Virus record (IMG/VR): IMGVR_UViG_3300050821_003315
From: a virus
DNA length: 64,000 nt
Direction: 5' to 3' (one strand)
Part shown: one piece after another, positions 8,210-59,392 of the stretch
How the letters are laid out: each line of letters begins with the position of its first letter
How positions within the stretch are numbered: the first letter of the stretch is position 1
Notes under the pieces: generated by a model
Told to the model about the DNA's origin: nothing
The model's database searches: none
What the model saw: the letters and a program-made list of their open reading frames with translations, nothing else
Program-made: the position numbers and the translations under genes

Positions 8210-11200
8210 CTAACGACCGAGCTGCGTAAACCCTGACATCGCAGAATGTCCGGCACCACGTGATTGTGCTTGCGCCATTTGCTGCGGCTGCTGCCGATTA
8301 ATGGTAACTAGCTGCCCTAGCAGTTGAAGCATTGTGTTCGCCTGATACGTTGTCATACCAGGACCGCCTGCTCCTCCACCGTTAGGTGTAGTACCCGGTA
8401 GGATACGCTCAGGCCCACGCTCTCCGAAGGAATAGCGCTTACCCGAAGCACCAATACCAAACACAGGCTCAGGAATAATACCGCCCAGCGCATAACCACG
8501 ACCAGAGCCAAGGCCCATGCCGTTAGTCATCAGACGGTCACCGTACTTGTGCTTGGCGTAATTAATCGCCGCCGCGATATTAGCCATCGGGTCGTCAATA
8601 TTGCTGCTGGTCCCTGGCCAGTGGAAGGACTTGAATGTGGAAGGAATTACCTGAAGTAGTCCCTGAGAAGGGTGTCCTGCCTTGGCGTTGCTGTCCCATA
8701 GGTTTATAGCACTGGGGTTACCGGAACTTTCTGTGCTTATCTGGAATAGAACTTGGTTAAGCAGGCTCTGCGGCTCACCTTCCATAGCCAGGACCTTACT
8801 TACGTCAGGTGCCCAGCGAGTAACATTCTTGCCAAGCGCTGTGTTAACGCCCTTAATAGGCCCTGCCGCTGCGTTAGCGGCTGCTACTTGGGCCAGGATG
8901 TCAGAGTGCGTAGAACCACTTGCAGTCTTCAAAGCAGTCTTGAGCTTAGGGTTGCTAACCACGCCGGTGTAAGCGCGCATGGTCTTCAGCAGCGGGTCGT
9001 CGCCTAGAATGCCAAGGTCTGAAAGTTCCTGTGCGTCTGCCATAAGCGTCTTCAGCTTAGACGGAGCAATTAGCTTGCTCAGTCGACCGTTATCCTTGTG
9101 GTCAAGAATAGCCATCTTCTTGTCGGCAGCTTCAGCCAAGGCAAGGTAATGCTGCGCCTTAGCGATACTTCCAGTCTTAGTGTGAGTAGCGGCACGCTCA
9201 TGTGCAGCTTCTGCTAGCAGGTGCTTCCTTTGTGCCCCTGTGTGTGAGTAAGATACTTGGCTGCGGTCAACGGCAGCCTGGTGTAGCAACTTTTCCTGCT
9301 GATTCTTGCTGTACTTAGGCCGATTAGCCTCAGCCGTGAGCAAGGCCGCCTCGTGCATGAGAGCCTTCTTAGCCGCAGGCTTAATATTTGCGTGAGTAGA
9401 AGCAAACGCATCGTTATTAGCGACAGCAAGTAGCTTCTTACGCTCTGCTGCGGTGTGAGAGAATGCGTGAGCTTGTGCTGTCAGCTTATTAGCCTTATTA
9501 AGGATGCTACGGTCCTTTGCTGTTTTTGTACTGCGAGCATCAGCTTCAGACGTGAACTTATTAGCAGCCGCAATATCAGCAGCTTTCTGCGCGGCTGTGG
9601 GAGCCTTAGTAGTGGCTTGCTTCGTAGAAGCGTCTGCCAACACTAGAGCTTCGTCGTAGTAGTGCACTACCTGCTTTAGCAGATTGTTGTAGGCATTAAT
9701 ATCCTGCGCTTCAGTAGGCTTCTTCTTGAAATGAGGTGCAGGCTTATGAGCAGGTGCGTGCTTAGCCTTTGCTGCTGCCGCTGCCGCAGTCTTGCTGCCA
9801 CCAGCTCCGGCGTCGCCAACAAGGCCACCCTCTCCGAACTTGAAGGTGAAAGCTCCTACGTTGGACTGAGGTCCAGGCATTACAGCGCCGCCACCGAACT
9901 GAGCACCTGCGCCGTAACGCATAATGGTCAGGTTACCGGCCGCCTGTGCGTTGGAGAAGATAGTGCCAGAGTTAGTGCCGTAAGCGGAGAACATCTTGTT
10001 CGGGCCAACACCGAAGCCAACGTGTCCAGGCCACACTAGAACGTCGCCGGGCATAATCTGACTTGGGTTGCTTCCGACAGGGTGAGCACCGGGCAGGCTT
10101 GTGAAGGAGGATGCTGTAGGTCCGTGAGACTTACCACCACCAGTTACAGAAGACCAGGAACCGCCAGGCAATGCCAGACCCAGGTCGTGGCCCAGGACCC
10201 AGGAAGCGAACGAGGAACAGTCCCAACCCGTGGTCGGGTTGGATGCGCCACCCCAGCGGTAAGGGTGGCCTACGTAGCGCTCTGCGTCCGATAGGATGCG
10301 TGAGGAACCGGCCGCTGGGGCGCTACTTACTCCCGCAGCTCCGGGCGCAATCGGACCCATTCCCTTGAAGCCCCGCAGAGAAGCGTAAAGCTGGGTGGCC
10401 AAACCAGGGCGCGTGTCAGAAAGGTGAACGGCGGGACGCTCGAATGCACTGGACCACAAGTCACCAGCGGCAACCGGGTCGGTCATCTTCATCAACTGAC
10501 CCCACGGGCCATTTGCCTTACCGTAACCGACGATTCCGGCCATCTGCACTGCAAGGTCTCGTGAAGCATTACCAGTCGGGCCGTGGTAGCCAGCGGGCAA
10601 GCCAATGTTGTTGCCAGTCCATCCAATAAGGCCGTAACCACCAGAACCTACAGACTCCGGGTTACCCGCAGATTCACCGTAAACAACAGATGCGATACCC
10701 GCAGCCGCAGCAGCCGAAGCTCCTTGAGACATCAAGTACCGACCGATTTGGTTCAGGTTAGCCATGGCATTACCCGAAACTACTCCTCCAGGAATAGCTC
10801 CGCTGCTGCCTGCCATCATGATGGCCGACTGCACAGCCTGAATACTGGAGACTAGTTCACTGGTGACCATCGGTCCTAGCTTTGCTAGCTCGCCGCTTAG
10901 CTTAGCCGGAATAGTTAGCAGCTGACTGCCTTCAACAGGCATTTCGGCTACGTTACCGCCAGTCTGCGTGGTCAGCAGACCACCGGAACCAGCGACAGGA
11001 CTGGTCGTGGCACCTACGATACCGCCGCTAGCGAATCCGGGGATACCCTTACGCTTAGCCTGTGTTGCAAACTCGGCTGCGTGATTCTTCGGGATAACCA
11101 GTTCACCAGGCATGAGCATTGCAGGCACGGAGTCGTGATTTCCCCAACCAGGGACGCTACCGCCGCCAGCAAAGTGTGAAGGTACTAGACCACCTTGTGC

Positions 11201-14200
11201 GAGTCCAAGAGACTTCAGCACACTGCTGCCTAGGTTACCCGCAGCCTTCATGGTGTTAGCGATAGCCGCGCTAACAGTAACCTCAGCGCCAACCTTACCG
11301 CCACCATCCACGTTGGTGTGGACGTGCACGCCGTAGTTACCGGACATCCTCTTAAGGGAGTTCCACATAGCGTCGGCTTCAGTCTTGCTGTAGCCCAACT
11401 TCTGCGCCAAGGTGTTGAATGCCTGGTGAGACATCGTAGCCTTGTGCGTAATCTGGTCAAGGTACTGCTGCTGTAGCGTGCGCCACAGAGCGTCAGCCTT
11501 TACCGTGCTAACGTGCCACGCATTGCTTAGGGCATCGAACTGGCTCTTGTTACGCGAAGCCTTAGCCGTCAGCGTGTCGAAGTACTGCTGGTGCAGCATG
11601 TTCCACAAAGTGTTAGCTTCACCGGTGCTGATGTGCGCAGAACGTGCCCAGGCATCGAATGCGCTCTTGCTTACGCCAGTCTTGCCTGTAAGCGCGTCTA
11701 GGTACTGCTGGCGCATCATTGACCACAGTTGGCTAGCTGCACCTGTGTTGACACCGAACTGGTGAGCTAGCTTTTGCAGCTGACTATTGGTCACTCGCGA
11801 CTTGTTAGACAGCATGTCGAACTGCTGCTGACGGGACTGCGCCCACATTTGTGCGGCGGCGGTATTAGTAATACCGAAACCCTTGGCCAAGCGTATGAAT
11901 GCACTGTAGCTTACGTTAGCCTTGTTGGTCAGCGTGTCCAGATACTGACGGCGCAGCATGCTCCACAGTGCGTTAGCCTGAGTCCGGTTCAAGCCAAGTG
12001 TGTCAGCTAGTCGTCCGAGCTGGCTGTGAGTAATGCCCGCCTTACCCGACAACGCGTCCAGGTACTGCCGGTGCATTACGGCCCACAGTGTCTGTGCCTG
12101 AGTTCCGCTAACTCCGAACTGGTGGGCCAGGGACTGTAGCTGACCTACAGTAATGCGAGACTTGCCAGACAGCATGTCGAACTGCTGCTGGTGTGCTCGT
12201 TCCCACAAAACTACAGCACTAGAAGCTGTAACACCGAACTGGTGGGCTAGCTTCATGAACGCGCCGAGCGTGCCGGCGGCCTTGTTCTTCAGCATGTCTA
12301 GGGAACCGTCGTGGAACTTGTTCCACAGAGCGTCAGCCTGGGTCTTGCTAATGCCGAACTGCCTTGCCAGCTTCTCAAACTCAGTTCGCGTGCCAGCGGT
12401 TTGATGGAGCAGTCCCTGAAGACCGTTTTCCTTAAGCCGACCCCACAGCTTGGTAGCTTCCTGGGCACTCATTCCCATAGATTCACCGAAGTGAACCCAG
12501 GCAGCTCGCGAAGCTGTGACGCTGGTGATGTTAATCTGCGTGGCCTTAGCCACCTGAGCCATGGATAGGGCAGCGGTGCGGTTAGCAGCAGCATTAGCAT
12601 TTGTGGCAGCGTTGTTCTTGATAAGCGCGTCAGCCATCTTAGTGGCTGTAGCCTGGCTAACGCCCATCTGCTCTAGATAGGCTTCCAAGGATTGCCGTGC
12701 CATGCCAACGTTATGCGTTTGCATCAAGAATGCCTGAGCTACAGGTTGTGCAGCCTTCAACATCTGGCCCCAGCCCTGACCACCGACTTGAGAACCAGCC
12801 TTTACCCACGCGAGAGTAGCTTTAGCCAGGTTCTCAAGCTTCGGCCCCATGTTTTCCGCTGCCATGATGGCGTTGGACTCCGCTGTCAGAAGCTGTGAGT
12901 TCATGGTCTGAGAAAGCCGTGCTACGTCCTGGTTAAGGTTAGAGCTAGCAACCGTCAACAAGTTCATCTGCTTGTTAAGGTCACCAGTAGCGTTGGAGGC
13001 ATTACCTGCCCACTTGGTGATTGCCTGGAAGTCAGTAGTACTGCCTGTAAAGCCCCCAGTCTGTGCCAGAGCGCCTAGCATCGACGTAGCGCCCGGATTC
13101 CCCCGGACGCCCGGTACGTTGCCCAGCATGGCTACTGTGTCCTTAGCGGCCCTAGCAGACGCTAGATTAGCGCCCGGAGTGTTACCTGCCAGCGCAGCCT
13201 GAGTCATCAAGGAGTTCATCAGGGTCTCAGCCTGCTGAATCTGCTGTACGTAAGCAGCAAGGGAAGCAGCGCCTGCCTGAGTAACGCCACCGATTACACC
13301 GCCGCTGCCAGTGATAGGCTGGCTAGCGCTTACCTTGCCGTTAGCGAATGTGAAGGTACCGGTGTTGCCCCCAGCACCCCCTGCCGCTCCACCAGACGCG
13401 GCGGACGCGCCGGGAGGCGCTAGCGAAGTAGCTAGCGTGCCCATGCCCTGCTGGAACTGCGCGAACTGCTGTGCGCTGCCCGTAACCATCTGGATGAACT
13501 GTGAGTAAGCCTGCGTAACCTTTTGTACTTCGCCAAGCGTGTTAGAAGTACTTAGGGTCAGAGCGTTCATGGCCGAAGCAGCGCCACCGATGGCAGGGGA
13601 CATCGCCTGGAAGCCCACCAAGGTACCCTGAATCATTACCATGTCCTGCTGCCACGCACCCTTGTTACCGTGCAAAGCAGCAGTCTGGTCAGTAATCAAT
13701 TGCTTGGTGGTGATGCCAGCAGCGTTAAGCAAACCTATAGCAGCCGTCTGGCTGCCCGTCATCTTAGTGACAGCGGCAATACCGGAGTTGTACGCCTGCA
13801 TCTGGCCATTCATGGCGTCGAGGCCGGCCTTCAGGTCCTGGTAGTGCTGAAGGAGAAGTCCTGCGGACTCTCCTGCGGCACGTCCATACCTAGCCTGGAA
13901 CTGCAAGATGTTTGTAGCCTGCTGGAACGTTACATTCGTGCCCCTTAGTGCACGTCCCGCCGCAGTCTGAGTCATCGCGTAATTCATGATGGCTGCCTTA
14001 GCCACATTTACGCGGTCTGAAATCTGGTTATAGCTGTTCTTGGCCGCTGCTAGGTAATCGGCTAGCGGAGCATTTTGTGCCAAGTCTTCTTGTGTCTTGA
14101 CCCAGGACTGCGTTTCGTTGTCAACGTGGTGAATGGCCAGGTACAGCAGTCCTGCACCTACCGCAAGACCAGCCATTACGCCTAGGCCAATAGGTCCAAG

Positions 14201-50495: not shown

Positions 50496-50576
50496 TGGAC
50501 TAGCAGGGAATCGAACCCTGGTGCTACTAGCTTCCGACGTTGCGGCTTTATCTAGCAGACGAGACCAACCTAGCCC
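50496..50576 (-). ncRNA. 81-nt tmRNA tRNA-like-domain (TLD)-only RNA with G3.U70 alanine identity
   Basis: GGGCTAG / CTAGTCC-A acceptor; stemless D loop GTTGGTCTCGT; helix CTGCTAG/CTAGTAG; 3-nt connector CAC; T arm CAGGG TTCGATT CCCTG. Confidence 0.65.
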
Positions 50577-50611
50577 AAGTTCAAGTGTAACTCAATCAGT
50601 GATAAGCGAAG

Positions 50612-50680
50612 TGCCCTCGCCCGGAGTCGAACCGGGTAGCCAAGCTTAGGAGGCTCGGCGCTGCGTCCGTCAGCGGGGGC
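50612..50680 (-). tRNA. tRNA-Arg(CCT), compact 69-nt form
   Basis: CCGAGC CTCCTAA GCTTGG; T loop TTCGACT. Confidence 0.75.
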
Positions 50681-50684
50681 AAAG

Positions 50685-50757
50685 AGGGGCATGTGGGAGT
50701 CGAACCCACGACTTCCGGGTTGCAGCCGGAATCCCGAAAACCATCGAGACATGCCCC
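50685..50757 (-). tRNA. tRNA-Cys(GCA)
   Basis: TCCGG CTGCAAC CCGGA; U73. Confidence 0.88.
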
Positions 50758-50758
50758 A

Positions 50759-50830
50759 TGGTGCTTCTATCCGGAGTCGAACCGGACAACCAACCTTCGG
50801 AGGGTCGGCGGAAGTTCCCCTACTAGAAGC
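50759..50830 (-). tRNA. tRNA-Arg(CCG), compact form, CCA encoded
   Basis: CCGACC CTCCGAA GGTTGG. Confidence 0.75.
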
Positions 50831-50834
50831 ACAG

Positions 50835-50910
50835 TGACCCCACAGGGATTTGAACCCTGAAAACTCCTGCTTGAAAGGCAGGTGACTTTAACCAATTTGT
50901 CCATGGGGCC
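50835..50910 (-). tRNA. tRNA-Glu(TTC)
   Basis: CCTGC CTTTCAA GCAGG. Confidence 0.92.
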
Positions 50911-50941
50911 TTGCAACTACAGTGTACACGGTTGCGCGCAG

Positions 50942-51015
50942 TGACCCTACAGGGACTTGAACCCTGAAACTCCACCTTGAGAGGGTGGCGACTTTACCTA
51001 TTTGTCTATAGGGCC
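50942..51015 (-). tRNA. tRNA-Glu(CTC)
   Basis: CCACC CTCTCAA GGTGG. Confidence 0.93.
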
Positions 51016-51018
51016 ATA

Positions 51019-51330
51019 CTAAATTTCTGCACCTGATTCAGGATAAGGACCTACTAGGTCATTTGAATCAAGAACAGGGTCTAGGAACTTGGCTATGATA
51101 GCTAGCCTGCTCCAGGTTATGAGGAATTTTCGTCCCGCGTAGTCTCCGTCAGAAACATTAATGCTGAGTCCTGACGGAAGTATCGCGCAATCTTCTTTCT
51201 TGAAGGACATATTATCTAGTTCGCGGGAGTGAGTTACAATTCGGATGCGAGTTACATCCTCATCGTTCCACCACGGAGGGTACAAGTAGGCGTTAGCCAA
51301 ATCGTTTTCCCTAATTACTCCGCGAGACAT
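51019..51330 (-). CDS. Hypothetical protein inside tRNA array
   Basis: RBS GGAGG and TAAGCT -10 upstream. Confidence 0.6.
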   Translation of the reverse strand: MSRGVIRENDLANAYLYPPWWNDEDVTRIRIVTHSRELDNMSFKKEDCAILPSGLSINVSDGDYAGRKFLITWSRLAIIAKFLDPVLDSNDLVGPYPESGAEI

Positions 51331-51365
51331 AAGCTGCTACCTCCAAGGTTTCAGCTTATCACGTT

Positions 51366-51437
51366 TGGCGCGGCACCAGGGAGTCTAACCCTGCCTAGGA
51401 ATTTAGAAGATTCCCGCCCGAATACGTCGGCTGCCGC
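51366..51437 (-). tRNA. tRNA-Arg(TCT), compact form with TTAGACT T loop, CCA encoded
   Basis: GGGAAT CTTCTAA ATTCCT; D arm CCGA CGTAT TCGG. Confidence 0.7.
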
Positions 51438-51441
51438 GTAG

Positions 51442-51514
51442 TGCCTCCCCAGAGACTCGAACTCTGATACACGGGGTAAAAGCCCGTTGTCCTACGCTAT
51501 TGAACGAAGGAGGC
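51442..51514 (-). tRNA. tRNA-Lys(TTT)
   Basis: ACGGG CTTTTAC CCCGT. Confidence 0.9.
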
Positions 51515-51518
51515 AAAG

Positions 51519-51590
51519 TAGGGTCGCAGGGAATTGAACCCTGTTAGCATGTGTATAAGACATGCGTCCTAACCAGTGAACGACGACCCC
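51519..51590 (-). tRNA. tRNA-Ile(TAT)
   Basis: CATGT CTTATAC ACATG. Confidence 0.88.
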
Positions 51591-51591
51591 G

Positions 51592-51665
51592 TAGCTCACC
51601 TGGGAATTGAACCCAGCACGTCTATCTTATCAGGATAGTTCCACCCACCAGGTGGACTGTGAGCC
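51592..51665 (-). tRNA. tRNA-Ile(GAT)
   Basis: CTATC CTGATAA GATAG; extended D stem. Confidence 0.85.
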
Positions 51666-51669
51666 AAAG

Positions 51670-51750
51670 CGGAAGATTGAGGTGCCGACCCCCGCACCTT
51701 TCGGTGCATCCGGGTTCAAACCGGATTGCCAGGCCGCTGGCTAACCTTCC
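51670..51750 (-). tRNA. tRNA-Ser(TGA), atypical T arm
   Basis: TCCGG TTTGAAC CCGGA; variable arm GCACC GAAA GGTGC; T loop GTCGGCA. Confidence 0.7.
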
Positions 51751-51823
51751 ACGATGTCGCTTTTGTTCAGCCAAGCTGACGGCACGGCAGGGTGCCCTGA
51801 ACGCGATAGTGACCATCGCAGCG

Positions 51824-51907
51824 CGGAAGACAGAGTACTCGAAACCCAGTCCTGACGGACCCATCTGCTTTCGAAACAGCGCCCGCAGCCTTACGGGTTT
51901 ATCTTCC
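51824..51907 (-). tRNA. tRNA-Ser(CGA)
   Basis: CTGT TTCGAAA GCAG; long variable arm; G73. Confidence 0.8.
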
Positions 51908-51911
51908 AACG

Positions 51912-51996
51912 CGGAGAGCGGAGAACTCGAATCCCAGCGCCTTACGACGCCCAGCTCGTTTCCAGCGAGTGCCCAGCCCTGCCAGGTTCACTCTCC
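51912..51996 (-). tRNA. tRNA-Ser(GGA)
   Basis: CTCG CTGGAAA CGAG; long variable arm; G73. Confidence 0.83.
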
Positions 51997-52007
51997 ATGT
52001 TACTGCG

Positions 52008-52082
52008 TAGCCGCCGTGGGACTCGAACCCACAACCTCAGGCACCTAAAGCCTGCGCCTCTGCCAAATTGGGCTAGGCGGCC
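52008..52082 (-). tRNA. tRNA-Leu(TAG), short variable loop
   Basis: CAGGC TTTAGGT GCCTG. Confidence 0.9.
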
Positions 52083-52152
52083 ATACTGCCCCGTTAATCC
52101 TCATCATACAGGCCCTGTACACAGGCTGAGGTGCGTGGAGGCTTACGCAGTG

Positions 52153-52237
52153 CGGAAGATTGAGAACTCGAATCCCAGTGCATCTCTACACCGCACTCGT
52201 TAGCAGCGAGGCCCAGAACCTATCTGGTTAATCTTCC
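52153..52237 (-). tRNA. tRNA-Ser(GCT)
   Basis: CTCG CTGCTAA CGAG; long variable arm. Confidence 0.83.
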
Positions 52238-52246
52238 AAGGGGGTT

Positions 52247-52319
52247 TCTGTGACGGACTTAAAGGCTTTATCCTACAGCGTACTCGCTGCCCGGACGCCT
52301 AAACCGGGACTTCCACAGA
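52247..52319 (-). ncRNA. Circularly permuted tRNA-like RNA (T arm - closed acceptor - D arm)
   Basis: TCTGTG GAAGT CCCGG TTTAGGCGT CCGGG CAGCG AGTA CGCTG TA GGAT AAAGCCTTTAA GTCC GT CACAGA. Confidence 0.55.
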
Positions 52320-52322
52320 CCG

Positions 52323-52397
52323 TGCCGCTCCGGGGATTCGAACCCCGAACATCTGGCTTCTGAGGCCAGCGCCTCTACCTAATTGGACTAGAGCGGC
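52323..52397 (-). tRNA. tRNA-Leu(CAG), short variable loop
   Basis: CTGGC CTCAGAA GCCAG. Confidence 0.92.
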
Positions 52398-52416
52398 ATA
52401 AGCTCTTTCGAGCCAG

Positions 52417-52488
52417 AGTGGATGACGGGATTCGAACCCGCAACCATCACCTTGGCAAGGTGATACGCTACCGTTGCGCCACATCCAC
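52417..52488 (-). tRNA. tRNA-Gly(GCC)
   Basis: TCACC TTGCCAA GGTGA. Confidence 0.95.
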
Positions 52489-52506
52489 ATAGTGCTTTTC
52501 GCACAG

Positions 52507-52579
52507 AGCCTTGACCGAGATTCGAACTCGGGACCTCATCCGTACCAAGGATGTGCTCTTCCGCTGGAGCTATCAAGGC
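52507..52579 (-). tRNA. tRNA-Thr(GGT)
   Basis: CATCC TTGGTAC GGATG. Confidence 0.94.
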
Positions 52580-52583
52580 AAAG

Positions 52584-52654
52584 CTGCGGTACAAGGATTC
52601 GAACCTCGATAGACGGGACCAAAACCCGTCGTCCTGCCGTTAGACGATACCGCA
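52584..52654 (-). tRNA. tRNA-Gln(TTG)
   Basis: ACGGG TTTTGGT CCCGT; U1-A72. Confidence 0.93.
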
Positions 52655-52667
52655 TTAACGTACTACG

Positions 52668-52739
52668 AGCCTCGTGCAGGATTTGAACCCGCGACCTTCG
52701 CCTTACAAGGGCACTGCTCTTCCACTGAGCTAACGAGGC
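52668..52739 (-). tRNA. tRNA-Thr(TGT)
   Basis: GCC CTTGTAA GGC. Confidence 0.9.
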
Positions 52740-52751
52740 ATTGTTACTGCG

Positions 52752-52836
52752 TGCGCGAAGAGGGACTTGAACCCTCACGACTCTTCCGAGTCACTGGACT
52801 CTCATTCCAGCGTGTCTGCCATTTCACCATCCGCGC
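52752..52836 (-). tRNA. tRNA-Leu(GAG), long variable arm
   Basis: CTGGA ATGAGAG TCCAG. Confidence 0.92.
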
Positions 52837-52855
52837 ATAGTTCCTTTCGGAACAG

Positions 52856-52923
52856 AGCCTCATCGGAGAATTGAACTCCGCGACATCCCCGTACGAAGGG
52901 GCTGTGTACCCAGTACATGAGGC
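52856..52923 (-). tRNA. tRNA-Thr(CGT), compact 68-nt form
   Basis: CCCC TTCGTAC GGGG; D arm GTAC TGG GTAC directly after the acceptor strand. Confidence 0.7.
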
Positions 52924-52927
52924 AAAG

Positions 52928-52998
52928 CTCCGGGGCAGAGATTCGAACTCCAATTAATAGGTTCAGAGCCTATCGTCCTGCCGTTAGACGACCCCGGA
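52928..52998 (-). tRNA. tRNA-Gln(CTG)
   Basis: ATAGG CTCTGAA CCTAT. Confidence 0.93.
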
Positions 52999-53015
52999 AT
53001 AGCGCTTTCGCGCAG

Positions 53016-53093
53016 TGCCGAATGAGGGAATCGAACCCCCGGTGCCAAAGGCAACAGTTTTACAGACTGCTTCCACTCCACGTGGTATCCGGC
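53016..53093 (-). tRNA. tRNA-Tyr(GTA), shortened D arm
   Basis: GCAGT CTGTAAA ACTGT; variable arm GCC TTT GGC. Confidence 0.82.
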
Positions 53094-53094
53094 A

Positions 53095-53170
53095 TGGTGT
53101 GACCGCTGGGAATTGAACCCAGATGGCTAGTTTCACAAACTAGCGTGTTAACCATTACACCACGGTCACC
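53095..53170 (-). tRNA. tRNA-His(GTG), CCA encoded
   Basis: CTAGT TTGTGAA ACTAG. Confidence 0.92.
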
Positions 53171-53171
53171 G

Positions 53172-53243
53172 TAGGCGATGAGGGATTCGAACCCCCGACT
53201 TTCTCTTTGTAAGAGAGATGCTCTTCCACTGAACTAATCGCCC
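53172..53243 (-). tRNA. tRNA-Val(TAC)
   Basis: TCTCT CTTACAA AGAGA. Confidence 0.95.
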
Positions 53244-53262
53244 ATAGCGCATTTCTGCGCAG

Positions 53263-53336
53263 TGCACTAGGAGGGATTCGAACCCCCAAGTCTCTTGATT
53301 CGTAGTCAAGTGCATTATCCGTTTTGCTACTAGTGC
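53263..53336 (-). tRNA. tRNA-Arg(ACG), canonical
   Basis: CTTGA CTACGAA TCAAG. Confidence 0.93.
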
Positions 53337-53337
53337 G

Positions 53338-53412
53338 CGACCCTAACGGGATTTGAACCCGTAACCTCCGCCGTGACAGGGCGGTGCTCTGACCAAGTTG
53401 AGCTATAGAGCC
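53338..53412 (-). tRNA. tRNA-Asp(GTC)
   Basis: CCGCC CTGTCAC GGCGG. Confidence 0.96.
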
Positions 53413-53431
53413 ATATCCTCTTGCGAGGAAG

Positions 53432-53503
53432 CTCCTGTGATAGGATTCGAACCTATAACCAAGCGGTTAACAGCCGCCTACTCTGCCGTTGAGCTACACA
53501 GGA
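53432..53503 (-). tRNA. tRNA-Asn(GTT)
   Basis: GGCGG CTGTTAA CCGCT. Confidence 0.95.
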
Positions 53504-53540
53504 TTAGCGCTTTCGCGCGGGTACACCTTAAGTATACCAG

Positions 53541-53611
53541 TACCTAGGGAGGGAATCGAACCCTCGTGTCTGGCTTATGAGACCAGTGTTCTTCCATTGA
53601 ACTACCCAGGC
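53541..53611 (-). tRNA. tRNA-Met(CAT), elongator (Ile2 not excluded)
   Basis: CTGGT CTCATAA GCCAG. Confidence 0.88.
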
Positions 53612-53614
53612 AAG

Positions 53615-53691
53615 TGGGGGCGCGTCCCGGATTTGAACCGGGGTTCTCCAGATTATGGGCCTGGCGAGATACCGAACTTCTCCAACGCGCA
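53615..53691 (-). tRNA. Initiator-like tRNA(CAT), atypical
   Basis: U1xC72 mismatch; fMet-like D arm GGAGAAGTTCGGTATCTCG; CCAGG CCCATAA TCTGG. Confidence 0.75.
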
Positions 53692-53692
53692 G

Positions 53693-53767
53693 TGCCCGAC
53701 CGGGGACTCGAACCCCGAACATCCGGTGTTTGAAACCGGCGACTCTACCTAATTGGCCTAGTCGGGC
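53693..53767 (-). tRNA. tRNA-Leu(CAA), short variable loop
   Basis: CCGGT TTCAAAC ACCGG. Confidence 0.92.
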
Positions 53768-53774
53768 AAACCTT

Positions 53775-53975
53775 CTAAAAGTGTCCCACAATCCTCCAGA
53801 TAGTCTGACTGTGGTAACGCTCGCAACGCAAGAACCAGTAACTGTGATACACAGCCCTTGTACCGAGTCGCGAACAGGAAGTGTTCGGAGCCGGGTGAGA
53901 CTGCGATGCTAGGGCTGAACCGCTGCCCAGTGCTATCGCTGCAATCGTGAACAAGGCTACAAGTAGTTTCTTCAT
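53775..53975 (-). CDS. Small secreted protein inside tRNA array
   Basis: MKKLLVALFTIAAIALGSGSALA signal peptide; two Cys; TAAACT -10 box 6 nt upstream (leaderless). Confidence 0.75.
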   Translation of the reverse strand: MKKLLVALFTIAAIALGSGSALASQSHPAPNTSCSRLGTRAVYHSYWFLRCERYHSQTIWRIVGHF

Positions 53976-53991
53976 GATTACAGTTTAGCAG

Positions 53992-54063
53992 TACCCCGCC
54001 AGGGATTCGAACCCTGACAACGCTGGGTAAGAGCCAGCTGCACTACCGTTATGCTAACGGGGC
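53992..54063 (-). tRNA. tRNA-Lys(CTT)
   Basis: GCTGG CTCTTAC CCAGC. Confidence 0.94.
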
Positions 54064-54067
54064 AAAG

Positions 54068-54139
54068 AGCGAGTGACGGGATTCGAACCCGCAGTGCCAC
54101 TTTGGAAGAGTGGGAGTTTAACCATTAACCAACACTCGC
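54068..54139 (-). tRNA. tRNA-Gly(TCC)
   Basis: CCACT CTTCCAA AGTGG. Confidence 0.9.
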
Positions 54140-54156
54140 ATAGCGCTTTCGCGCAG

Positions 54157-54228
54157 TGGCTCCCAGAAGACTTGAACTTCTTTATCTTGGGCTTCAACCA
54201 AGTGCTCTACCATATGAGCTAGAGAGCC
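54157..54228 (-). tRNA. tRNA-Phe(GAA)
   Basis: CTTGG TTGAAGC CCAAG. Confidence 0.9.
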
Positions 54229-54247
54229 ATAACCCTTTATAGGGCAG

Positions 54248-54318
54248 TCGGGATGCGGAGAATCGAACTCCGTCTGCATGCTCCCAAAGCATGCGCGCTA
54301 CCAGTACGCTACACCCCG
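54248..54318 (-). tRNA. tRNA-Pro(TGG)
   Basis: CATGC TTTGGGA GCATG. Confidence 0.93.
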
Positions 54319-54380
54319 TGGAGCCCGGTTTATTTTGGTTGCTCCGGAAATCACGGCAACTCGTTCATCATTGAACTACG

Positions 54381-54455
54381 TCAGAGTGGTGGGATTCGAA
54401 CCCACGACCTCCTGCATCCCGAGCAGGCACGCTAACCAAGCTGCGCTACACCCTG
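54381..54455 (-). tRNA. tRNA-Pro(GGG)
   Basis: CCTGC TCGGGAT GCAGG (C33). Confidence 0.9.
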
Positions 54456-54484
54456 ATACAGCCACCGCTTGCAATCAGTGGCCT

Positions 54485-54577
54485 AAGTTACATTCGCCGC
54501 TCTGCCATTAAGCTACAGTGCCGTGGGAGCTACCCTTGCACTGACCGGAGTCGAACCGGCACCTGTTTCTGTAACTT
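54485..54577 (-). ncRNA. YrlA-type bacterial Y RNA (permuted tRNA mimic)
   Basis: AAGTTACA...T arm GCCGG TTCGACT CCGGT - CAGTGC/GCACTG closed acceptor - TA - D arm GCTT AATGGCA GAGC - GGCGAATG motif - TGTAACTT closing stem. Confidence 0.75.
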
Positions 54578-54579
54578 TG

Positions 54580-54654
54580 TCTGGACGGGAGGATTTGAAC
54601 CTCCGACCTCCGCAATCCGAATGCGGCACGCTGACCAAGCTGCGCTACGCCCAG
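54580..54654 (-). tRNA. tRNA-Pro(CGG)
   Basis: CCGCA TTCGGAT TGCGG. Confidence 0.93.
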
Positions 54655-54740
54655 TTAAAGCACGGTGTGCTATGCTCCCTACACCATCCTGCCCCTGTTG
54701 GGACGGGTGCCGATTCCAACGGCGACCTCCGTGAACTAAC
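54655..54740 (-). ncRNA. Circularly permuted tRNA-like RNA
   Basis: CACGG AGGTC GCCG TTGGAAT CGGC A CCCGTCCC AACA GGGGCAGG A TG GTGT AGGGAGCATA GCAC A CCGTG. Confidence 0.65.
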
Positions 54741-54836
54741 GCCGGGTATGCTCCCTCCATACAACACCGGGCAACTCCACGCACTCTCATGCGCTTCACC
54801 GTCACCCAGGCAGGATTCGAACCTGCGCCTCCCAGC
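54741..54836 (-). ncRNA. Circularly permuted tRNA-like RNA with extended acceptor hairpin
   Basis: GCTGG GAGGC GCAGG TTCGAAT CCTGC CTGGGTGAC...GCGCAT GAGA GTGCGT...GTTGCCCGG TGTT GTATG GAGGGAG CATAC CCGGC. Confidence 0.65.
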
Positions 54837-54839
54837 AAG

Positions 54840-54914
54840 TGGACCATGTCGGATTCGAACCGACAACCTTCACCGTGCAAAGGTGTTGCTCTACCAGATT
54901 GGAGCTAATGGCCC
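54840..54914 (-). tRNA. tRNA-Ala(TGC)
   Basis: CACC TTTGCAC GGTG; G3.U70. Confidence 0.94.
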
Positions 54915-54995
54915 ATGGTGACCTGAACAAGGAAATGCGTCTAGCTATTCCCGGAAGCCGGGATTCTAGGCACACGCCCCTATTCAGGTCATCTT

Positions 54996-55047
54996 GCTTA
55001 TCACTGTTGAGTTATCAAATAACAGGACACTCGCCGTAGCGAAGTCC
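54996..55047 (-). promoter_or_regulatory. rrn-type boxB hairpin + boxA antitermination element
   Basis: GGAC TTCGC TACG GCGA GT GTCC hairpin then TGTTATTTGATAACTCAACAGTG, resembling the actinobacterial rrn leader boxA. Confidence 0.65.
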
Positions 55048-55050
55048 GTG

Positions 55051-55121
55051 CAGGCCACCAGAGAGTCGAACTCTGTCTAAGAGGGTTGGAGCCTCGTGTG
55101 CTTCCGGTACACCAGTGACCT
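55051..55121 (-). tRNA. tRNA-Trp(CCA)
   Basis: GAGG CTCCAAC CCTC; G73. Confidence 0.9.
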
Positions 55122-55162
55122 ATACTTTTTTCTTATTTAGTTGTTTTGCGCTTGTACCCTCT

Positions 55163-55202
55163 AACAACGAAGACCGCCTCCGGTTTATTCCGGGGCGGTC
55201 TC
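55163..55202 (-). terminator. Intrinsic terminator / attenuator hairpin upstream of tRNA array
   Basis: GAGACCGCCCCGG AATAAA CCGGAGGCGGTC TTCGTTGTT. Confidence 0.7.
55166..55191 (-). promoter_or_regulatory. SigR/SigH-type ECF promoter (GGAAT-N18-GTT)
   Basis: GGAAT at 55191..55187 and GTT at 55168..55166, with exactly 18 nt between. Confidence 0.5.
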
Positions 55203-55224
55203 TCGATTTTCCGAGATTGTGCCC

Positions 55225-55332
55225 CTAACCAGGGTTACCCAGCTTCGGCATGCTGAAGGCAGCGCGGATGACCCGCTGGCAGTGCCAGTAGGCTCGTCCG
55301 GTGCCGCTCAGTGCGGAGGTCTTCGTCATCAT
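55225..55332 (-). CDS. 35-aa leaderless upstream ORF (putative leader peptide)
   Basis: MMTKTSALSGTGRAYWHCQRVIRAAFSMPKLGNPG; extended -10 TGG-TAAGGT ends 6 nt before the ATG. Confidence 0.6.
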   Translation of the reverse strand: MMTKTSALSGTGRAYWHCQRVIRAAFSMPKLGNPG

Positions 55333-55387
55333 GCTTCTACCTTACCACGCTCTCCGAGTGCTCAAACCATCTTGAGCAAAAATCTTG

Positions 55388-55579
55388 TCAGAAGTTGTAC
55401 GGGTCGTTCAGGTACTGCTGGATGACAGTGTAGATGCCGGGGTCGTCGCCCTTAATCTGGGCGGGTTGCCCGTTCATGTCTACCATCACGTCGTAAGTAC
55501 CCGGACCCTTGTTGTCCAGCTTAACTATCTGTGCTTTACGAAGCACGTCTTTAAGTGCTTCTAGTGCTTCCGTCCTCAT
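55388..55579 (-). CDS. Hypothetical protein
   Basis: ORF in operon. Confidence 0.6.
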   Translation of the reverse strand: MRTEALEALKDVLRKAQIVKLDNKGPGTYDVMVDMNGQPAQIKGDDPGIYTVIQQYLNDPYNF

Positions 55580-55581
55580 GA

Positions 55582-55842
55582 TTAGTACTGCGGGAGTTGC
55601 GCTACAGGCATCGCTATGCCCGGAAGCAGCGGCATTGTCGAGACGGGAGCGTACAGCGTCCCTAGCTGGTCGCGCAGCGCTGCCAGGAGTCCGGGGTTAC
55701 CCCGCCAGTTGAAAGGCATACCGTCTTGAGCCAGCGGCTGTGCTGTGGCCCACAGGGCCTCGTCCAGCGTCATCCACAGGTCGCGAGCGTCCTGGTCGGA
55801 CAGAGTGAGACTTACTGTGGACTTGCGCGTGATTTCTACCAT
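55582..55842 (-). CDS. Hypothetical protein
   Basis: ORF in operon. Confidence 0.6.
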   Translation of the reverse strand: MVEITRKSTVSLTLSDQDARDLWMTLDEALWATAQPLAQDGMPFNWRGNPGLLAALRDQLGTLYAPVSTMPLLPGIAMPVAQLPQY

Positions 55843-55847
55843 GTCCC

Positions 55848-56417
55848 CTACCTATCCCACGAGTCGGTCTTGTCGTAGTCCAACGTCCACATGGCATGAG
55901 CTATTCCCGCGCCCTTGATGGCCCTCATGCAGCCACCACACGGCTCACCACTCACCCGCTGGCGATTGAATGCCCGACCGTCACGAAGTTCGTATGTAAT
56001 AGCCGTAATATAAATCGAGGCACCTTCGCACTTATCACGGTCGGCGTACAGGAGTGCATTTAGCTCAGCATGTACGGCGATACACGACCCTGCGCCAGTG
56101 TCATAGCTGGAACCGGGTTCCACCGAAGACTTGCACGGCCATCCGATAGTATTGCACGTGCCACAGCCTTTTGAATCAAAGTCATTATGGTTGCTGTACA
56201 AGACCTTGTAGTGCTGACCGCGCGGGCAGTCTCCCTCAAGGCAAGAACCTTCACCCGAGGGCGCTCCGTTGTAGCCCGTCGCGACAATGCGGTTATCCTT
56301 CGCGATGACAGCCCCGACGTTGCGCCGCGTGCAGTCCGCTCGCTCGCTGACAGTCTCAGCCAGGTCGAGAAAGTACTCAGGCCAGTCAGGCCGCTTCCAG
56401 AATTTCCACGTCGTCAT
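55848..56417 (-). CDS. dCMP deaminase
   Basis: RADCTRRNVGAVI...ATGYNG; VHAELNAL; PCGGC. Confidence 0.93.
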   Translation of the reverse strand: MTTWKFWKRPDWPEYFLDLAETVSERADCTRRNVGAVIAKDNRIVATGYNGAPSGEGSCLEGDCPRGQHYKVLYSNHNDFDSKGCGTCNTIGWPCKSSVEPGSSYDTGAGSCIAVHAELNALLYADRDKCEGASIYITAITYELRDGRAFNRQRVSGEPCGGCMRAIKGAGIAHAMWTLDYDKTDSWDR

Positions 56418-56468
56418 TACCCCTCCAACACCCAGTGCGTTTCGCTTATTCCGGCTAGCCTTTTATAC

Positions 56469-57239
56469 ATGATTCTGTATAAGATATTCACGATAGTAAT
56501 CGGGCTTATAGCCGGACTGTTCATGCTCCCTGCGCCTGCGGCTATAGCTTCTACTGCGCCGAACCAGAAGTGCCCGCCGAACGGGACTAACTGGTCATCT
56601 AGCGAGCAGTGGACTACTCGGTCGTTCACGGGAACTGATGGCAGCACGTATTCCCTTAACGCTAATCAATGGGGAACAGATAGTTCCGACAAGTTCACTA
56701 TGTTCACTACGACCACTAAGGGAGAGTGGGGCTTTTGCGCTAACTCTAACCCTAATGGTGGCTGGCCTTACGCTAACGAGGAAAAAGACTACAACGGTAA
56801 GTCTGTAAGCTCTATTAAGACGCTTGTCAGCACTTACGGTTTTAGCGTTCCCAGTAACTACGGTCAGTGGAATGTAGCCTACGACATCGGCATCAACGGC
56901 GAAGTAGCTAACGGTGCTCACGAGGTAATGTTCTGGGTGTACACACATGGGCAGAGCACAGGCAGTACGCCAGAAGGAACCATCACCGTCGATGGTCAGA
57001 AGTGGGACCTGTCTGGTTGCACAACTTGCAGGCGTGTTGACCTCGTACTACCGAAGAACAGTACGTCAGGCACTCTTCACATAGCGGATTTGCTTCATGC
57101 GCTTCAAAAGGATTCTCGCACACGAGGCACAGTTCCACCGAGCGCACAGCTTTACGGCGTACAATTCGGGTCGGAAGTGCACGGTACGCAAGGTCACACA
57201 CTAACATTTCTCTACCAGAAGTACACGCTTACTCCCTAA
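56469..57239 (+). CDS. Secreted GH12 glycoside hydrolase (endo-beta-glucanase-like)
   Basis: Signal peptide from ATG 56469; NANQWG; WNVAYDI; HEVMFW (nucleophile E); VQFGSEV (acid/base E). Confidence 0.82.
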   Translation: MILYKIFTIVIGLIAGLFMLPAPAAIASTAPNQKCPPNGTNWSSSEQWTTRSFTGTDGSTYSLNANQWGTDSSDKFTMFTTTTKGEWGFCANSNPNGGWPYANEEKDYNGKSVSSIKTLVSTYGFSVPSNYGQWNVAYDIGINGEVANGAHEVMFWVYTHGQSTGSTPEGTITVDGQKWDLSGCTTCRRVDLVLPKNSTSGTLHIADLLHALQKDSRTRGTVPPSAQLYGVQFGSEVHGTQGHTLTFLYQKYTLTP

Positions 57240-57493
57240 ACGCGCTGCCAGTTTGTGATTAGCGTCCCACAAGGGATGTGATTCACGGCCTTATCCTGAA
57301 AGTACGGCAGGCATTCATAGCATACGAAACGGGGCCGTGTTGACCTATTACACGTATCACAATTCACGATAACGCGAGCTACGGAGGGGTTACCGCAAAC
57401 GGTAACCCCTTCCTCGTCGTATAGCTCACAAGGCGGCGCACCCTCTAGGTCAATACCCTCAAGAAAATGCACTAGGGAAGTAGCGTCAGCCAT
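57236..57493 (-). CDS. Cys-rich hypothetical protein
   Basis: Multiple CxxC motifs. Confidence 0.6.
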   Translation of the reverse strand: MADATSLVHFLEGIDLEGAPPCELYDEEGVTVCGNPSVARVIVNCDTCNRSTRPRFVCYECLPYFQDKAVNHIPCGTLITNWQRV

Positions 57494-57496
57494 CTT

Positions 57497-57757
57497 TTAG
57501 TCCTTAAGCCACGTGTTGTTACTACGGCGGATACTAGTAAACATGCTAGCTGGTACCTTGTGTCCCGCGTAGCAGTGCAACTTAAGGTGCTGGTCGATGA
57601 ACTTGCAGTAGTGGAACACCGGGTCGGGTTCTACCTTCTTGCCGTTCTCATCTTCAGGAACGAACTTGCATCCGACGCACTGTAGCACCTTGGAGGTGTT
57701 CTGAACGACTTCCAACAAGTAAACATCGGACTTTTCCCCGCACAGAACGTAGGTCAT
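57497..57757 (-). CDS. Hypothetical protein (CxxC, HxxxH)
   Basis: SDVY...CVGC...HLKLH...GHKVP. Confidence 0.6.
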   Translation of the reverse strand: MTYVLCGEKSDVYLLEVVQNTSKVLQCVGCKFVPEDENGKKVEPDPVFHYCKFIDQHLKLHCYAGHKVPASMFTSIRRSNNTWLKD

Positions 57758-58011
57758 GAACTCACCTGGTGCTTCGTAACGCGAACGCTATCACCTTCGC
57801 AACTGTAAGTGGCAAAGAAAATCCAGCCATCATCCAGCATGCTCTGAGTAAGCTCATAAACTTCGATATTTTCGGGGCAGTGGCGACTACCTGTTTTAAG
57901 CTCTCTATCGGCATACTCGATAGCGTCTATTGCGTCAGCGAACACTTTAATATCCGGGTCGGCGTGTCGGTCTTGAACTAGCACCACGTAAACGTCAATC
58001 ATTCTTCCCAC
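57754..58011 (-). CDS. Hypothetical protein
   Basis: ORF downstream of rtcB. Confidence 0.6.
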   Translation of the reverse strand: MGRMIDVYVVLVQDRHADPDIKVFADAIDAIEYADRELKTGSRHCPENIEVYELTQSMLDDGWIFFATYSCEGDSVRVTKHQVSS

Positions 58012-58020
58012 CCTTACGTT

Positions 58021-59205
58021 CTAGCCCTTATAATTAAAAACCTGCTGGATTTCAGTAACTACTTCGCACAAGTCAGCTTGGTCGGCCATGACACCGTGGA
58101 TGTCCTTGTACGCCAAGGGGGCCTCGTCTATGAGCGCATCAACGCGGTCAGCGTTCCAAGTTATTCCCGCGCGAGCCATGTGAGCGACAAACGAATCGCG
58201 GTCGAGTTCACGCTTTGCCCTGGAACGACTCATCTTGCGGCCGGCTCCGTGAGAGCTGCTGTTGAAAGACTCCGCGCTGCCCAGGCCACGAGTGATGAAC
58301 GTGCTCGTACCCATAGAGCCAGGGACTACACCTAGGTCACCTACATCAGCCTTAATGGCTCCCTTACGGGTAATCCACAACTCCTTGTCGCCATGAGTCT
58401 CGCGTGCGGTGTAGTTGTGGTGGCAGTTGATGACTTCAACGATACCATCATCAATAGTTTCCCACACCTCAGGCATGCCTACAACCTCGAACAAGGACTT
58501 CAGCAAGGCATCGTTCATCGCCTGACGGTTACCGTAAGCGTAATTCTGTGCCCACACAAGGTCGCGCATGTACTCCTGGAACTCAGGTGTACCTTCAAGG
58601 AAGTAAGCCAGGTCAGGGTCTTCGAGGCTAACTGAAAGTTGCTTCATCAGCCCCTTTGCCTTTTTAATGTGGCCACTGGCTAGCTGGTTGCCGATGCCAC
58701 GACTTCCCGAGTGAAGTACCGTCCACACGAATCCGTTAGGGTCGAGTCCCACCTCAACGAAGTGGTTTCCGGAACCTAGCGACCCGAACTGAGAGCACAG
58801 CGTGTGCTCTTGAGCTGATGTTAGGTCCAGCGACTCCCACTCAGGAATCTTGCTAAGGTCAATGTTATCGTTAGCGTGCCCCGCGCCTACACCTGCCGGG
58901 ATTCGCTGCTCAATCAGCGACATCAGCGGGCTAAGGTCATCGGGCAAGTCGTGTGCCGTGTAGCCTGTTTCGGTTGCAATCATGCCACAGCCGATGTCCA
59001 CCCCTACCGCAGCAGGGATGATTGCCCCGTTGGTCGGGATTACCGAGCCTACGGTAGCGCCCATACCGATGTGAGCATCGGGCATCAGGGCAACATGGCC
59101 CTCCACGAACGGCAAACGGGACGCGCGAGCAGCCTGCTCAAGCGTGTCACCTTCGATGTCTGTTGCCCAGTAGAGCAACCGGTTCTTCCCGTACTGCTGC
59201 GGCAT
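58021..59205 (-). CDS. rtcB: RtcB RNA ligase
   Basis: MPDAHIG; VGVDIGCGM; GSGNHFVE; LHSGSRG; CHHNY; RKGA; HGAGR; DEAPLAYK. Confidence 0.97.
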   Translation of the reverse strand: MPQQYGKNRLLYWATDIEGDTLEQAARASRLPFVEGHVALMPDAHIGMGATVGSVIPTNGAIIPAAVGVDIGCGMIATETGYTAHDLPDDLSPLMSLIEQRIPAGVGAGHANDNIDLSKIPEWESLDLTSAQEHTLCSQFGSLGSGNHFVEVGLDPNGFVWTVLHSGSRGIGNQLASGHIKKAKGLMKQLSVSLEDPDLAYFLEGTPEFQEYMRDLVWAQNYAYGNRQAMNDALLKSLFEVVGMPEVWETIDDGIVEVINCHHNYTARETHGDKELWITRKGAIKADVGDLGVVPGSMGTSTFITRGLGSAESFNSSSHGAGRKMSRSRAKRELDRDSFVAHMARAGITWNADRVDALIDEAPLAYKDIHGVMADQADLCEVVTEIQQVFNYKG

Positions 59206-59392
59206 GGGTACCTCTTTTTCTTGCTGTTATCGCCTAGGGGTCGCCTCACCCCTCACAACACAGCATGGTGGCCAACTATTCCCGCTACGAATAACTGTCT
59301 ATAGCTTCTGAACTTGCTAGGCCCTTTCTTTAGTACACGCATAACCTGTACGCTAAGGTGAGTACACTGCCGCGTGCCTTGAGAGGTTCCCT

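Follow-up and report, generated by a model that had tools for sequence, protein, structure and literature searches.

A host-like leader with a candidate stall-sensing attenuator at the tRNA array of a putative actinomycete phage

The locus and its leader

The DNA considered here is a 64,000-nt stretch of the IMG/VR virus record IMGVR_UViG_3300050821_003315 (hereafter the window), which carries a large array of tRNA genes and a regulatory-looking leader on its minus strand. In transcription order, the region comprises the RNA ligase gene rtcB, a leaderless upstream open reading frame (uORF), a terminator-like hairpin, tRNA-Trp, a strand resembling the boxA and processing stalk of host rRNA (rrn) operons, 38 further tRNA genes interspersed with four permuted tRNA-like modules, the partner strand of the stalk, and a small RNA of the type that consists only of the tRNA-like domain (TLD) of transfer-messenger RNA (tmRNA). 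A preliminary description of the locus had combined all of these into one stress-gated translation-rescue unit. Our analysis favors a narrower reading, centered on the leader and the array.

In reverse complement, the window corresponds to bases 1–63933 of a 163.5-kb virus genome rated complete. That this is a tailed phage with a filamentous actinomycete as its host is indicated by genes for portal, capsid and SsgA proteins and by the rarity of TTA (0.3 per 1000 codons). The SsgA-family protein is encoded at bases 133995–134456 of the genome (10995–11456, minus strand, of piece L018; Pfam E 7e-23). Three related lineages with the same region were recovered, L002, L028 and L030, whose rtcB genes are 89%, 73% and 76% identical to that of the window at the DNA level; with the window they make up the four lineages compared below. 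The whole array is covered in L002 only, the sequences of L028 and L030 ending inside it. No close cultured phage was found, as BLAST of the array against 50,697 phages returned single-tRNA matches only.

A putative housekeeping-sigma-like promoter (55339–55366, minus strand; −35 TTTGAG, −10 TAAGGT) is conserved in the four lineages, and its −10 box lies six bases 5′ of the uORF ATG, which corresponds to a leaderless start. The uORF (55225–55332, minus strand) has 35 codons in the window, encoding 18 amino-acid types. Its start, stop and frame are kept in the four lineages (34–35 codons), including an in-frame 3-nt deletion in L030, and five of its codons vary only at the third base, synonymously. 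The peptide contains 18–19 of the 20 amino-acid types, depending on the lineage; at least 18 types in 35 codons occur in 5% of phage ORF windows, and at least 19 types in 34 codons in 0.8%. Codons 8–22, the core of the uORF, are nearly invariant at the DNA level. The same codon is retained at 16 of 21 invariant uORF residues versus 71 of 268 in rtcB (p = 8e-6), suggesting selection on codon identity or on RNA structure, two effects that are not separable here. The uORF has no sequence relative in the GTDB genomes, and the lone match among protein representatives was rejected as a repeat artefact.

Downstream of the uORF, an intrinsic-terminator-like hairpin with a GU-rich tail (55163–55202, minus strand) shows compensatory changes in its lower stem. 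This GC-rich hairpin has two compensatory pairs across the four lineages, and a smaller hairpin at 55201–55216 covaries as well. The sequence TAGGGGC at the uORF stop is invariant in the four lineages, and its GGGGC is complementary to the GCCCC of the terminator 5′ arm. These segments form a candidate anti-terminator (55194–55225, minus strand), whose pairing closes the small covarying hairpin. When the nascent RNA is folded, the terminator 5′ arm is captured by the stop region in all four lineages, and masking that region, as a terminating ribosome would, frees the arm. Both the leaderless uORF and the hairpin of the preliminary description were thus recovered as conserved elements.

The leader resembles the whiB7/wblC attenuator in its short uORF, broad amino-acid content and intrinsic terminator, with which its candidate anti-terminator would compete as in that system (PMC10274678). 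In the whiB7 system, the uORF senses many amino acids and ribosome stalling leads to read-through (PMC10274678). Unlike whiB7/wblC, the phage leader heads a tRNA array rather than a WhiB7 gene, and it has putative bypass promoters downstream. Since no WhiB was found in the phage genome, the leader would work like a whiB7 leader without being one.

In one soil metatranscriptome (X1), seven parts of the leader and array are represented by contigs identical to the window; one such contig (55044–55316) spans the uORF, the terminator and tRNA-Trp. These contigs record presence only, with neither strand nor level, and the library may contain DNA; they are therefore a weak hint of expression. The lack of rtcB cover in X1 is no evidence, and runs X2–X4 contain mostly relatives or small shares. 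The RNA data sets with the best matches were soil metatranscriptomes.

An rrn-like stalk and predicted bypass promoters

A boxA-like sequence with the 5′ strand of a processing stalk lies between tRNA-Trp and the rest of the array (54994–55024, minus strand) and is unique in the genome. Its partner (50587–50610, minus strand) directly follows the last tRNA, 4.4 kb away. The two strands form 11 + 8 pairs around a bulge in the window and 20 perfect pairs in L002. No duplex within 7 kb is better than this leader–trailer pairing, which outscored all 30 shuffles in the window and in L002. The boxA strand and its distal complement in the preliminary description were therefore confirmed, whereas the boxB placed before them corresponds to a hairpin (55025–55047) that looks generic and whose sequence differs in two relatives.

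The pattern TGTT-N-TTTGA-N-AACTCAACAG was run on the GTDB genomes. Of its 120 matches, nearly all of them in actinobacteria, 59 precede the start of 16S, another 59 fall at the ends of contigs, and the remaining 2 are elsewhere. In hosts, the partner strand 3′ of 16S resembles the phage trailer, and the window and L002 match the commonest host boxA-stalk forms at 20 of 21 positions, one central base being different. Because both the pattern matches and the partner strand agree, the phage leader copies the host boxA and pre-16S processing stalk. The likeness to actinobacterial rrn leaders, in which antitermination acts via boxA and Nus, thus extends to a near-identical boxA-stalk and to a partner strand after the enclosed RNA (PMC8632103). 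Unlike the rrn leader, the phage stalk follows the first tRNA and encloses 38 tRNA genes and no 16S; no rRNA gene was found in the window. By analogy, we infer that the boxA copy supports Nus-dependent antitermination.

Among other viral matches to the pattern, L022, L023 and L027 are repeats of the L002 phage, and no tRNA array was found at L004, L005, L020, L021 and L024–L026. The same boxA-like motif also occurs in cluster K mycobacteriophages, among them those at L009:11531, L011:12877, L012:1038 and L013:6686. There it occupies an intergenic site close to the right end of the genome, where a small hairpin precedes it and a ribosome-binding motif follows immediately.

The motif GGAATA-N17-GTT occurs 25 times in the genome, versus 0–5 times for other spacings, and 10 of the 25 copies lie exactly 9 nt before a start codon. 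A slightly looser pattern gave 27 matches in a relative (G001) and 15 in phage Issimir (L154), where all copies are on the plus strand and have the form GGAATG-N17-GTT; the class is absent from phages ScoobyDoobyDoo and Sixama. On this distribution, we regard GGAATA-N17-GTT as a phage-wide promoter class. Its sequence and spacing equal the SigR promoter consensus of Streptomyces (SigH in mycobacteria), GGAAT-N18-GTT (PMC2375139). Unlike SigR/SigH promoters, the phage motif is used genome-wide, often for leaderless genes. No phage extracytoplasmic function (ECF) sigma factor scored over the cut-off in the genome, where a divergent one could be missed, and none was detected in G001 or Issimir; a hijacked host stress sigma factor may therefore read this class.

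Two copies lie in the leader and are predicted to bypass the attenuator. One (55166–55191, minus strand) is inside the terminator, with a predicted start at about 55156, past the terminator; its spacer is one base shorter in L030. The other (54926–54951, minus strand) would start at 54916, two bases before tRNA-Ala and downstream of boxA, and both of its boxes are kept in the four lineages while its spacer diverges. A long hairpin (54917–54993; region z-score −6.9) lies between the stalk and tRNA-Ala, and its 3′ arm holds the latter promoter. The SigR/SigH-type promoter that the preliminary description placed in the hairpin is thus present and conforms to GGAAT-N18-GTT; as one of 25 copies, it is not specific to the leader. 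That description had also named transcription from internal promoters as an argument against control by the leader, and with two predicted starts past the terminator, one of them past boxA, the locus comes close to that situation. Non-conservation, its other counter-argument, does not apply, since all four lineages retain the uORF, the terminator and the boxA-like strand, and L002 also the partner strand, with compensatory changes.

Cultured phages show the same layout, which is unannotated there. In ScoobyDoobyDoo, Phabba and Myrna, a conserved leaderless uORF of 24–25 codons and hairpins precede the first tRNA, and a boxA-like motif, which has a distal partner strand, follows the third (L153:8376–8900 and 11798; L209:365–1280 and 4945; L210:413–960 and 4273). 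A C-G pair of the stalk in ScoobyDoobyDoo is replaced by T-A in Phabba and Myrna. The uORFs of these Myrnaviruses share an RA-x-Y..WH-like stretch with that of the window, a resemblance that does not by itself imply homology. In Gordonia phage Sixama, the boxA-like motif follows the first tRNA and has a 14-bp partner 6.3 kb away. The core TTGA-N-AACT is kept in the Myrnaviruses and Sixama, where it falls largely outside the paired segment. Not every array has the layout: no boxA-like motif was found at those of BRock, Alone3, Atuin and Issimir. In Issimir, a leaderless ORF of 19 codons precedes the array; no leaderless uORF was found at the other three.

The window array resembles those of cluster C mycobacteriophages (Myrna, Phabba, ScoobyDoobyDoo and Issimir), which carry many tRNAs, about 30, in one block (PMC10264068), and the Myrnaviruses share its leaderless uORF, boxA-like motif and distal partner. 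Unlike the window phage, the cluster C phages tested encode Ro60, and Phabba encodes a full tmRNA; only single tRNAs of these phages align with the window array, and the window phage carries SsgA.

Contents of the array and neighboring genes

The 39 minus-strand tRNA genes of the preliminary description were confirmed at 50611–55121 and cover all 20 amino acids. The first, tRNA-Trp(CCA) (55050–55121), holds that place in all four lineages, and the other 38 lie at 50611–54914. ARAGORN identified 35 genes by default. Ser-GCU (52153–52237), Ser-GGA (51912–51996) and Ser-CGA (51824–51907) appeared at a relaxed score, and Arg-UCU (51366–51437), which has odd arms, was recognized by its fold. Most genes lack an encoded CCA. 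A tRNA-Ile with a UAU anticodon (51518–51590) has a counterpart so annotated in Sixama, and tRNA-Thr(CGU) (52855–52923) has a shortened D arm that is kept in L002 and L030. tRNA-Leu(UAA) is not among the array tRNAs, which fits the near-absence of TTA codons. Permuted-tmRNA calls made by ARAGORN inside the array were rejected as artefacts of relaxed scoring.

The array was originally taken to be untranslated, and two minus-strand ORFs inside it modify this view. One (53775–53975) is kept in the four lineages and encodes a secreted-looking 66-aa protein with a signal-peptide-like start, two invariant Cys and three invariant His residues; homologue searches with it returned no lineage beyond the four. 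The other (51019–51330, 103 aa) is found in the window only and is absent from L002. L030 has nuclease-like insertions, and three ORFs are inserted between its tRNA genes (8638–9072, 9803–10192 and 10369–11013), one of them marked PD-(D/E)XK; one has its own GGAATA-N17-GTT promoter at 9766. The spacers of the relatives also carry non-tRNA inserts of 60–250 nt (L002:10191–10277, 10351–10443, 11832–11894, 12052–12126, 12292–12374 and 13802–13988; L030:8217–8470; L028:10984–11229), and those of L002, which were tested, had no Rfam match. Their equivalents in the window are short spacers, such as a GCGC-GAAA-GCGC hairpin (54154, 53518 and 53013). These insert differences suggest that the spacers are interchangeable slots for small RNAs.

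Four spacers contain permuted modules, as first reported, in which a closing stem encloses a T arm, an acceptor-like hairpin and a D arm. Module 1 (54740–54837, minus strand, as are all four) is kept in the four lineages, with paired changes in the closing, T and acceptor stems. Module 2 (54661–54733) also occurs in L002 and L030, module 3 (54487–54575) has counterparts in L030 and L028, and module 4 (52248–52318), with a degenerate T loop, recurs in L002. Module 3 gave the best match to the Rfam YrlA model (RF02553), at 30.2 bits (E 0.0014) against a cut-off of 69. A structure descriptor found module 1 and the L028 form of module 3, missed modules 2–4 of the window and made a few low-score false calls; MAFFT gave no structural alignment. 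The modules resemble the permuted tRNA-like part of YrlA Y RNAs in that the T arm precedes the D arm and both are closed by an anticodon-like stem (RF02553; PMC4201824). Unlike YrlA, they end at the closing stem, without the long Ro60-binding stem, and are present as four copies interleaved with tRNAs; Ro60 (TROVE) was found neither in the phage genome nor in its relative. Unannotated permuted modules were also seen in the arrays of ScoobyDoobyDoo (L153:9089–9162) and Issimir (L154:11508–11589), and near the Ro gene of Alone3 (L158:3724–3794). We considered that RtcB might ligate the modules into real tRNAs. RNase P ends are not RtcB substrates. This idea was dropped because of these unsuitable ends and because the acceptor-like stems vary from 6 to 9 pairs and have no fixed discriminator.

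The TLD-only mini-tmRNA named in the preliminary description was identified with a tmRNA model at 50496–50576 (minus strand), after the array and outside the stalk. This 81-nt RNA fits both ends of the model (E 2.5e-9), with about 300 positions missing, and has G3-U70, A73, a T arm and a stemless D loop, and no tag frame. It resembles the TLD-only tmRNA known from DS6A in its size of about 80 nt, predicted alanine identity, T arm and lack of a tag frame; inhibition of tmRNA, possibly through titration of SmpB, is reported for a similar molecule (PMC4131195). Unlike the DS6A RNA, it has a different sequence and directly follows a tRNA array. The L002 genome has a different TLD RNA, on the opposite strand and 4.9 kb beyond the array. 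Neither an SmpB gene nor a full tmRNA was found in the phage genome, and similar-sized TLD-like elements occur in 45 viral contigs.

The rtcB gene (58021–59205, minus strand) is intact, with a Pfam match (PF01139, E 5e-111) and the motifs DAH, DIGCG, GNHF, HHN and HGAGR, in agreement with the preliminary description. It occupies the same place in L002, L028 and L030. Its own GGAATA-N17-GTT promoter (59257–59282, minus strand) precedes it, and the gene lies upstream of the attenuator. Between rtcB and the array, an opposite-strand gene (56469–57239, plus strand) encodes a protein with 60% identity to an L028 gene marked PF01670; judged by this relative it is secreted and GH12-like, and the window copy has no Pfam match. 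It is followed by a dCMP deaminase gene (55848–56417, minus strand) with its own GGAATA-N17-GTT promoter (56427–56452), and a further motif match lies at 55882–55907. With a plus-strand gene and two more promoters intervening, rtcB is not contiguous with the array; judged from this arrangement, it is a syntenic neighbor and not under the attenuator.

Interpretation of the locus

We read the locus as a phage tRNA operon that mimics the host and combines an attenuator responsive to ribosome stalls with bypass promoters, and give this reading a probability of about 0.55; more tRNA is probably made when ribosomes stall. The parts, their conservation and covariation, and their match to host rrn leaders are observed, and from them we infer uORF translation, switching, Nus binding, processing and the sigma factor used. 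By one route, the housekeeping-type promoter would give rise to a leaderless message with almost all amino acids represented among its 35 codons. On reaching the uORF stop, a ribosome would cover GGGGC, allowing the terminator to form and transcription to end. An earlier stall, caused by a cut or uncharged tRNA or by a drug, would leave GGGGC free to trap the terminator 5′ arm, resulting in read-through as in whiB7/wblC. By a second route, the two SigR/SigH-type copies would start transcription past the terminator, so that the array would also be made with the general programme of the phage. The boxA copy would recruit the host Nus antitermination complex for a 4.4-kb, mostly untranslated RNA. 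As in pre-16S RNA, the stalk would be closed by the distal strand beyond the last tRNA, and the tRNAs and permuted mimics would be released by nucleases of the host. The product would be a near-complete replacement tRNA set. The rtcB gene, TLD RNA and permuted modules would be neighboring cargo of a “translation” region, not necessarily tied to the switch.

Several observations weigh against this reading, and some of them also favor a programmed array, one made mainly from the phage-wide SigR/SigH-type promoters. The upstream unit would then be an independent small gene or a structured RNA, separated from the array by an ordinary insulating terminator. Both GGAATA-N17-GTT copies past the uORF favor such a programme, and the conserved one before tRNA-Ala skips boxA and the stalk 5′ strand entirely. 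The terminator wins at equilibrium in most folds. Pairing of its 5′ arm clearly beats shuffles in one lineage only (fractions 0.04–0.32), shuffled sequence pairing the arm nearly as well in three of the four. A long hairpin can also form from the uORF core, whose conservation in DNA may thus reflect RNA structure. In addition, a simple terminator scan did not call the hairpin, whose tail lacks a clean U run. The comparison comprises four lineages, two of them close, and the trailer can be checked in one relative only (L002). A merely insulating terminator, in contrast, would not account for an invariant GGGGC that coincides precisely with the stop codon and complements the terminator arm, nor for the unusual amino-acid breadth of the uORF. 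A leaderless uORF before the array also recurs in the unrelated Myrnaviruses, one of which has no GGAATR-N17-GTT site. We therefore consider the programmed array unlikely, though deserving serious weight.

In the original proposal, tRNAs, decoys, TLD RNA and RtcB are induced together through the attenuator and a stress sigma factor of the host. It draws on the existence of all the parts, on the synteny of rtcB in four lineages under the same promoter class as the array, and on the identity of that class with the Streptomyces SigR consensus (PMC2375139) in a genome where no phage ECF sigma factor was found. Against it, the promoter class also heads the deaminase and many other genes, and the opposite-strand gene separates rtcB from the array. 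The TLD RNA lies outside the stalk, its counterpart in L002 differs in sequence, strand and place, and TLD-only RNA of the DS6A type is reported to inhibit tmRNA (PMC4131195). Neither Ro60 nor SmpB was detected, and relatives of rtcB are widespread, with 694 phage records that include many small phages. These points speak against one stress-gated unit, and we find such a unit improbable. It is more doubtful still that the boxA-like strand serves solely as a stalk for processing or folding, inherited from an rRNA leader, a site for a double-strand nuclease with no role in antitermination. The stalk half is indeed the best kept and its partner strand covaries, and the boxA 5′ half differs in L028 and L030; its drift in L028 weighs against our preferred reading too. 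However, the match of the window and L002 to the host boxA-stalk spans all but one central base, and the TTGA-N-AACT core of the Myrnaviruses and Sixama is retained mostly outside the paired part.

Each mechanism invoked here is known from bacteria; the literature searched contained no case of their use on phage tRNA arrays, and nothing relevant on boxA antitermination of phage tRNA clusters or on SigH-type phage promoters. A broader generalization is speculative, and we hold it to be rather unlikely in full: tRNA-rich actinophage arrays may be inducible pseudo-rRNA operons, in which the leader senses any loss of host tRNA, Nus and a 16S-type stalk deliver and process the RNA, the Ro-less modules act as anticodon-free nuclease decoys, and a host oxidative-stress sigma factor drives the genome. 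As the same layout is present in the cultured Mycobacterium smegmatis phages Myrna, Phabba and ScoobyDoobyDoo, the proposed operon can be tested now.

The reason for which phages carry tRNA arrays has long been debated, with codon compensation set against defense from host tRNA nucleases; phage tRNAs are known to counter anticodon nucleases (PMC10264068). If our preferred reading is true, a leader opened by stalled ribosomes would mean that the phage responds to tRNA loss, and the boxA with its 16S-type stalk would account for the processing of kilobases of untranslated phage RNA and for their escape from Rho.

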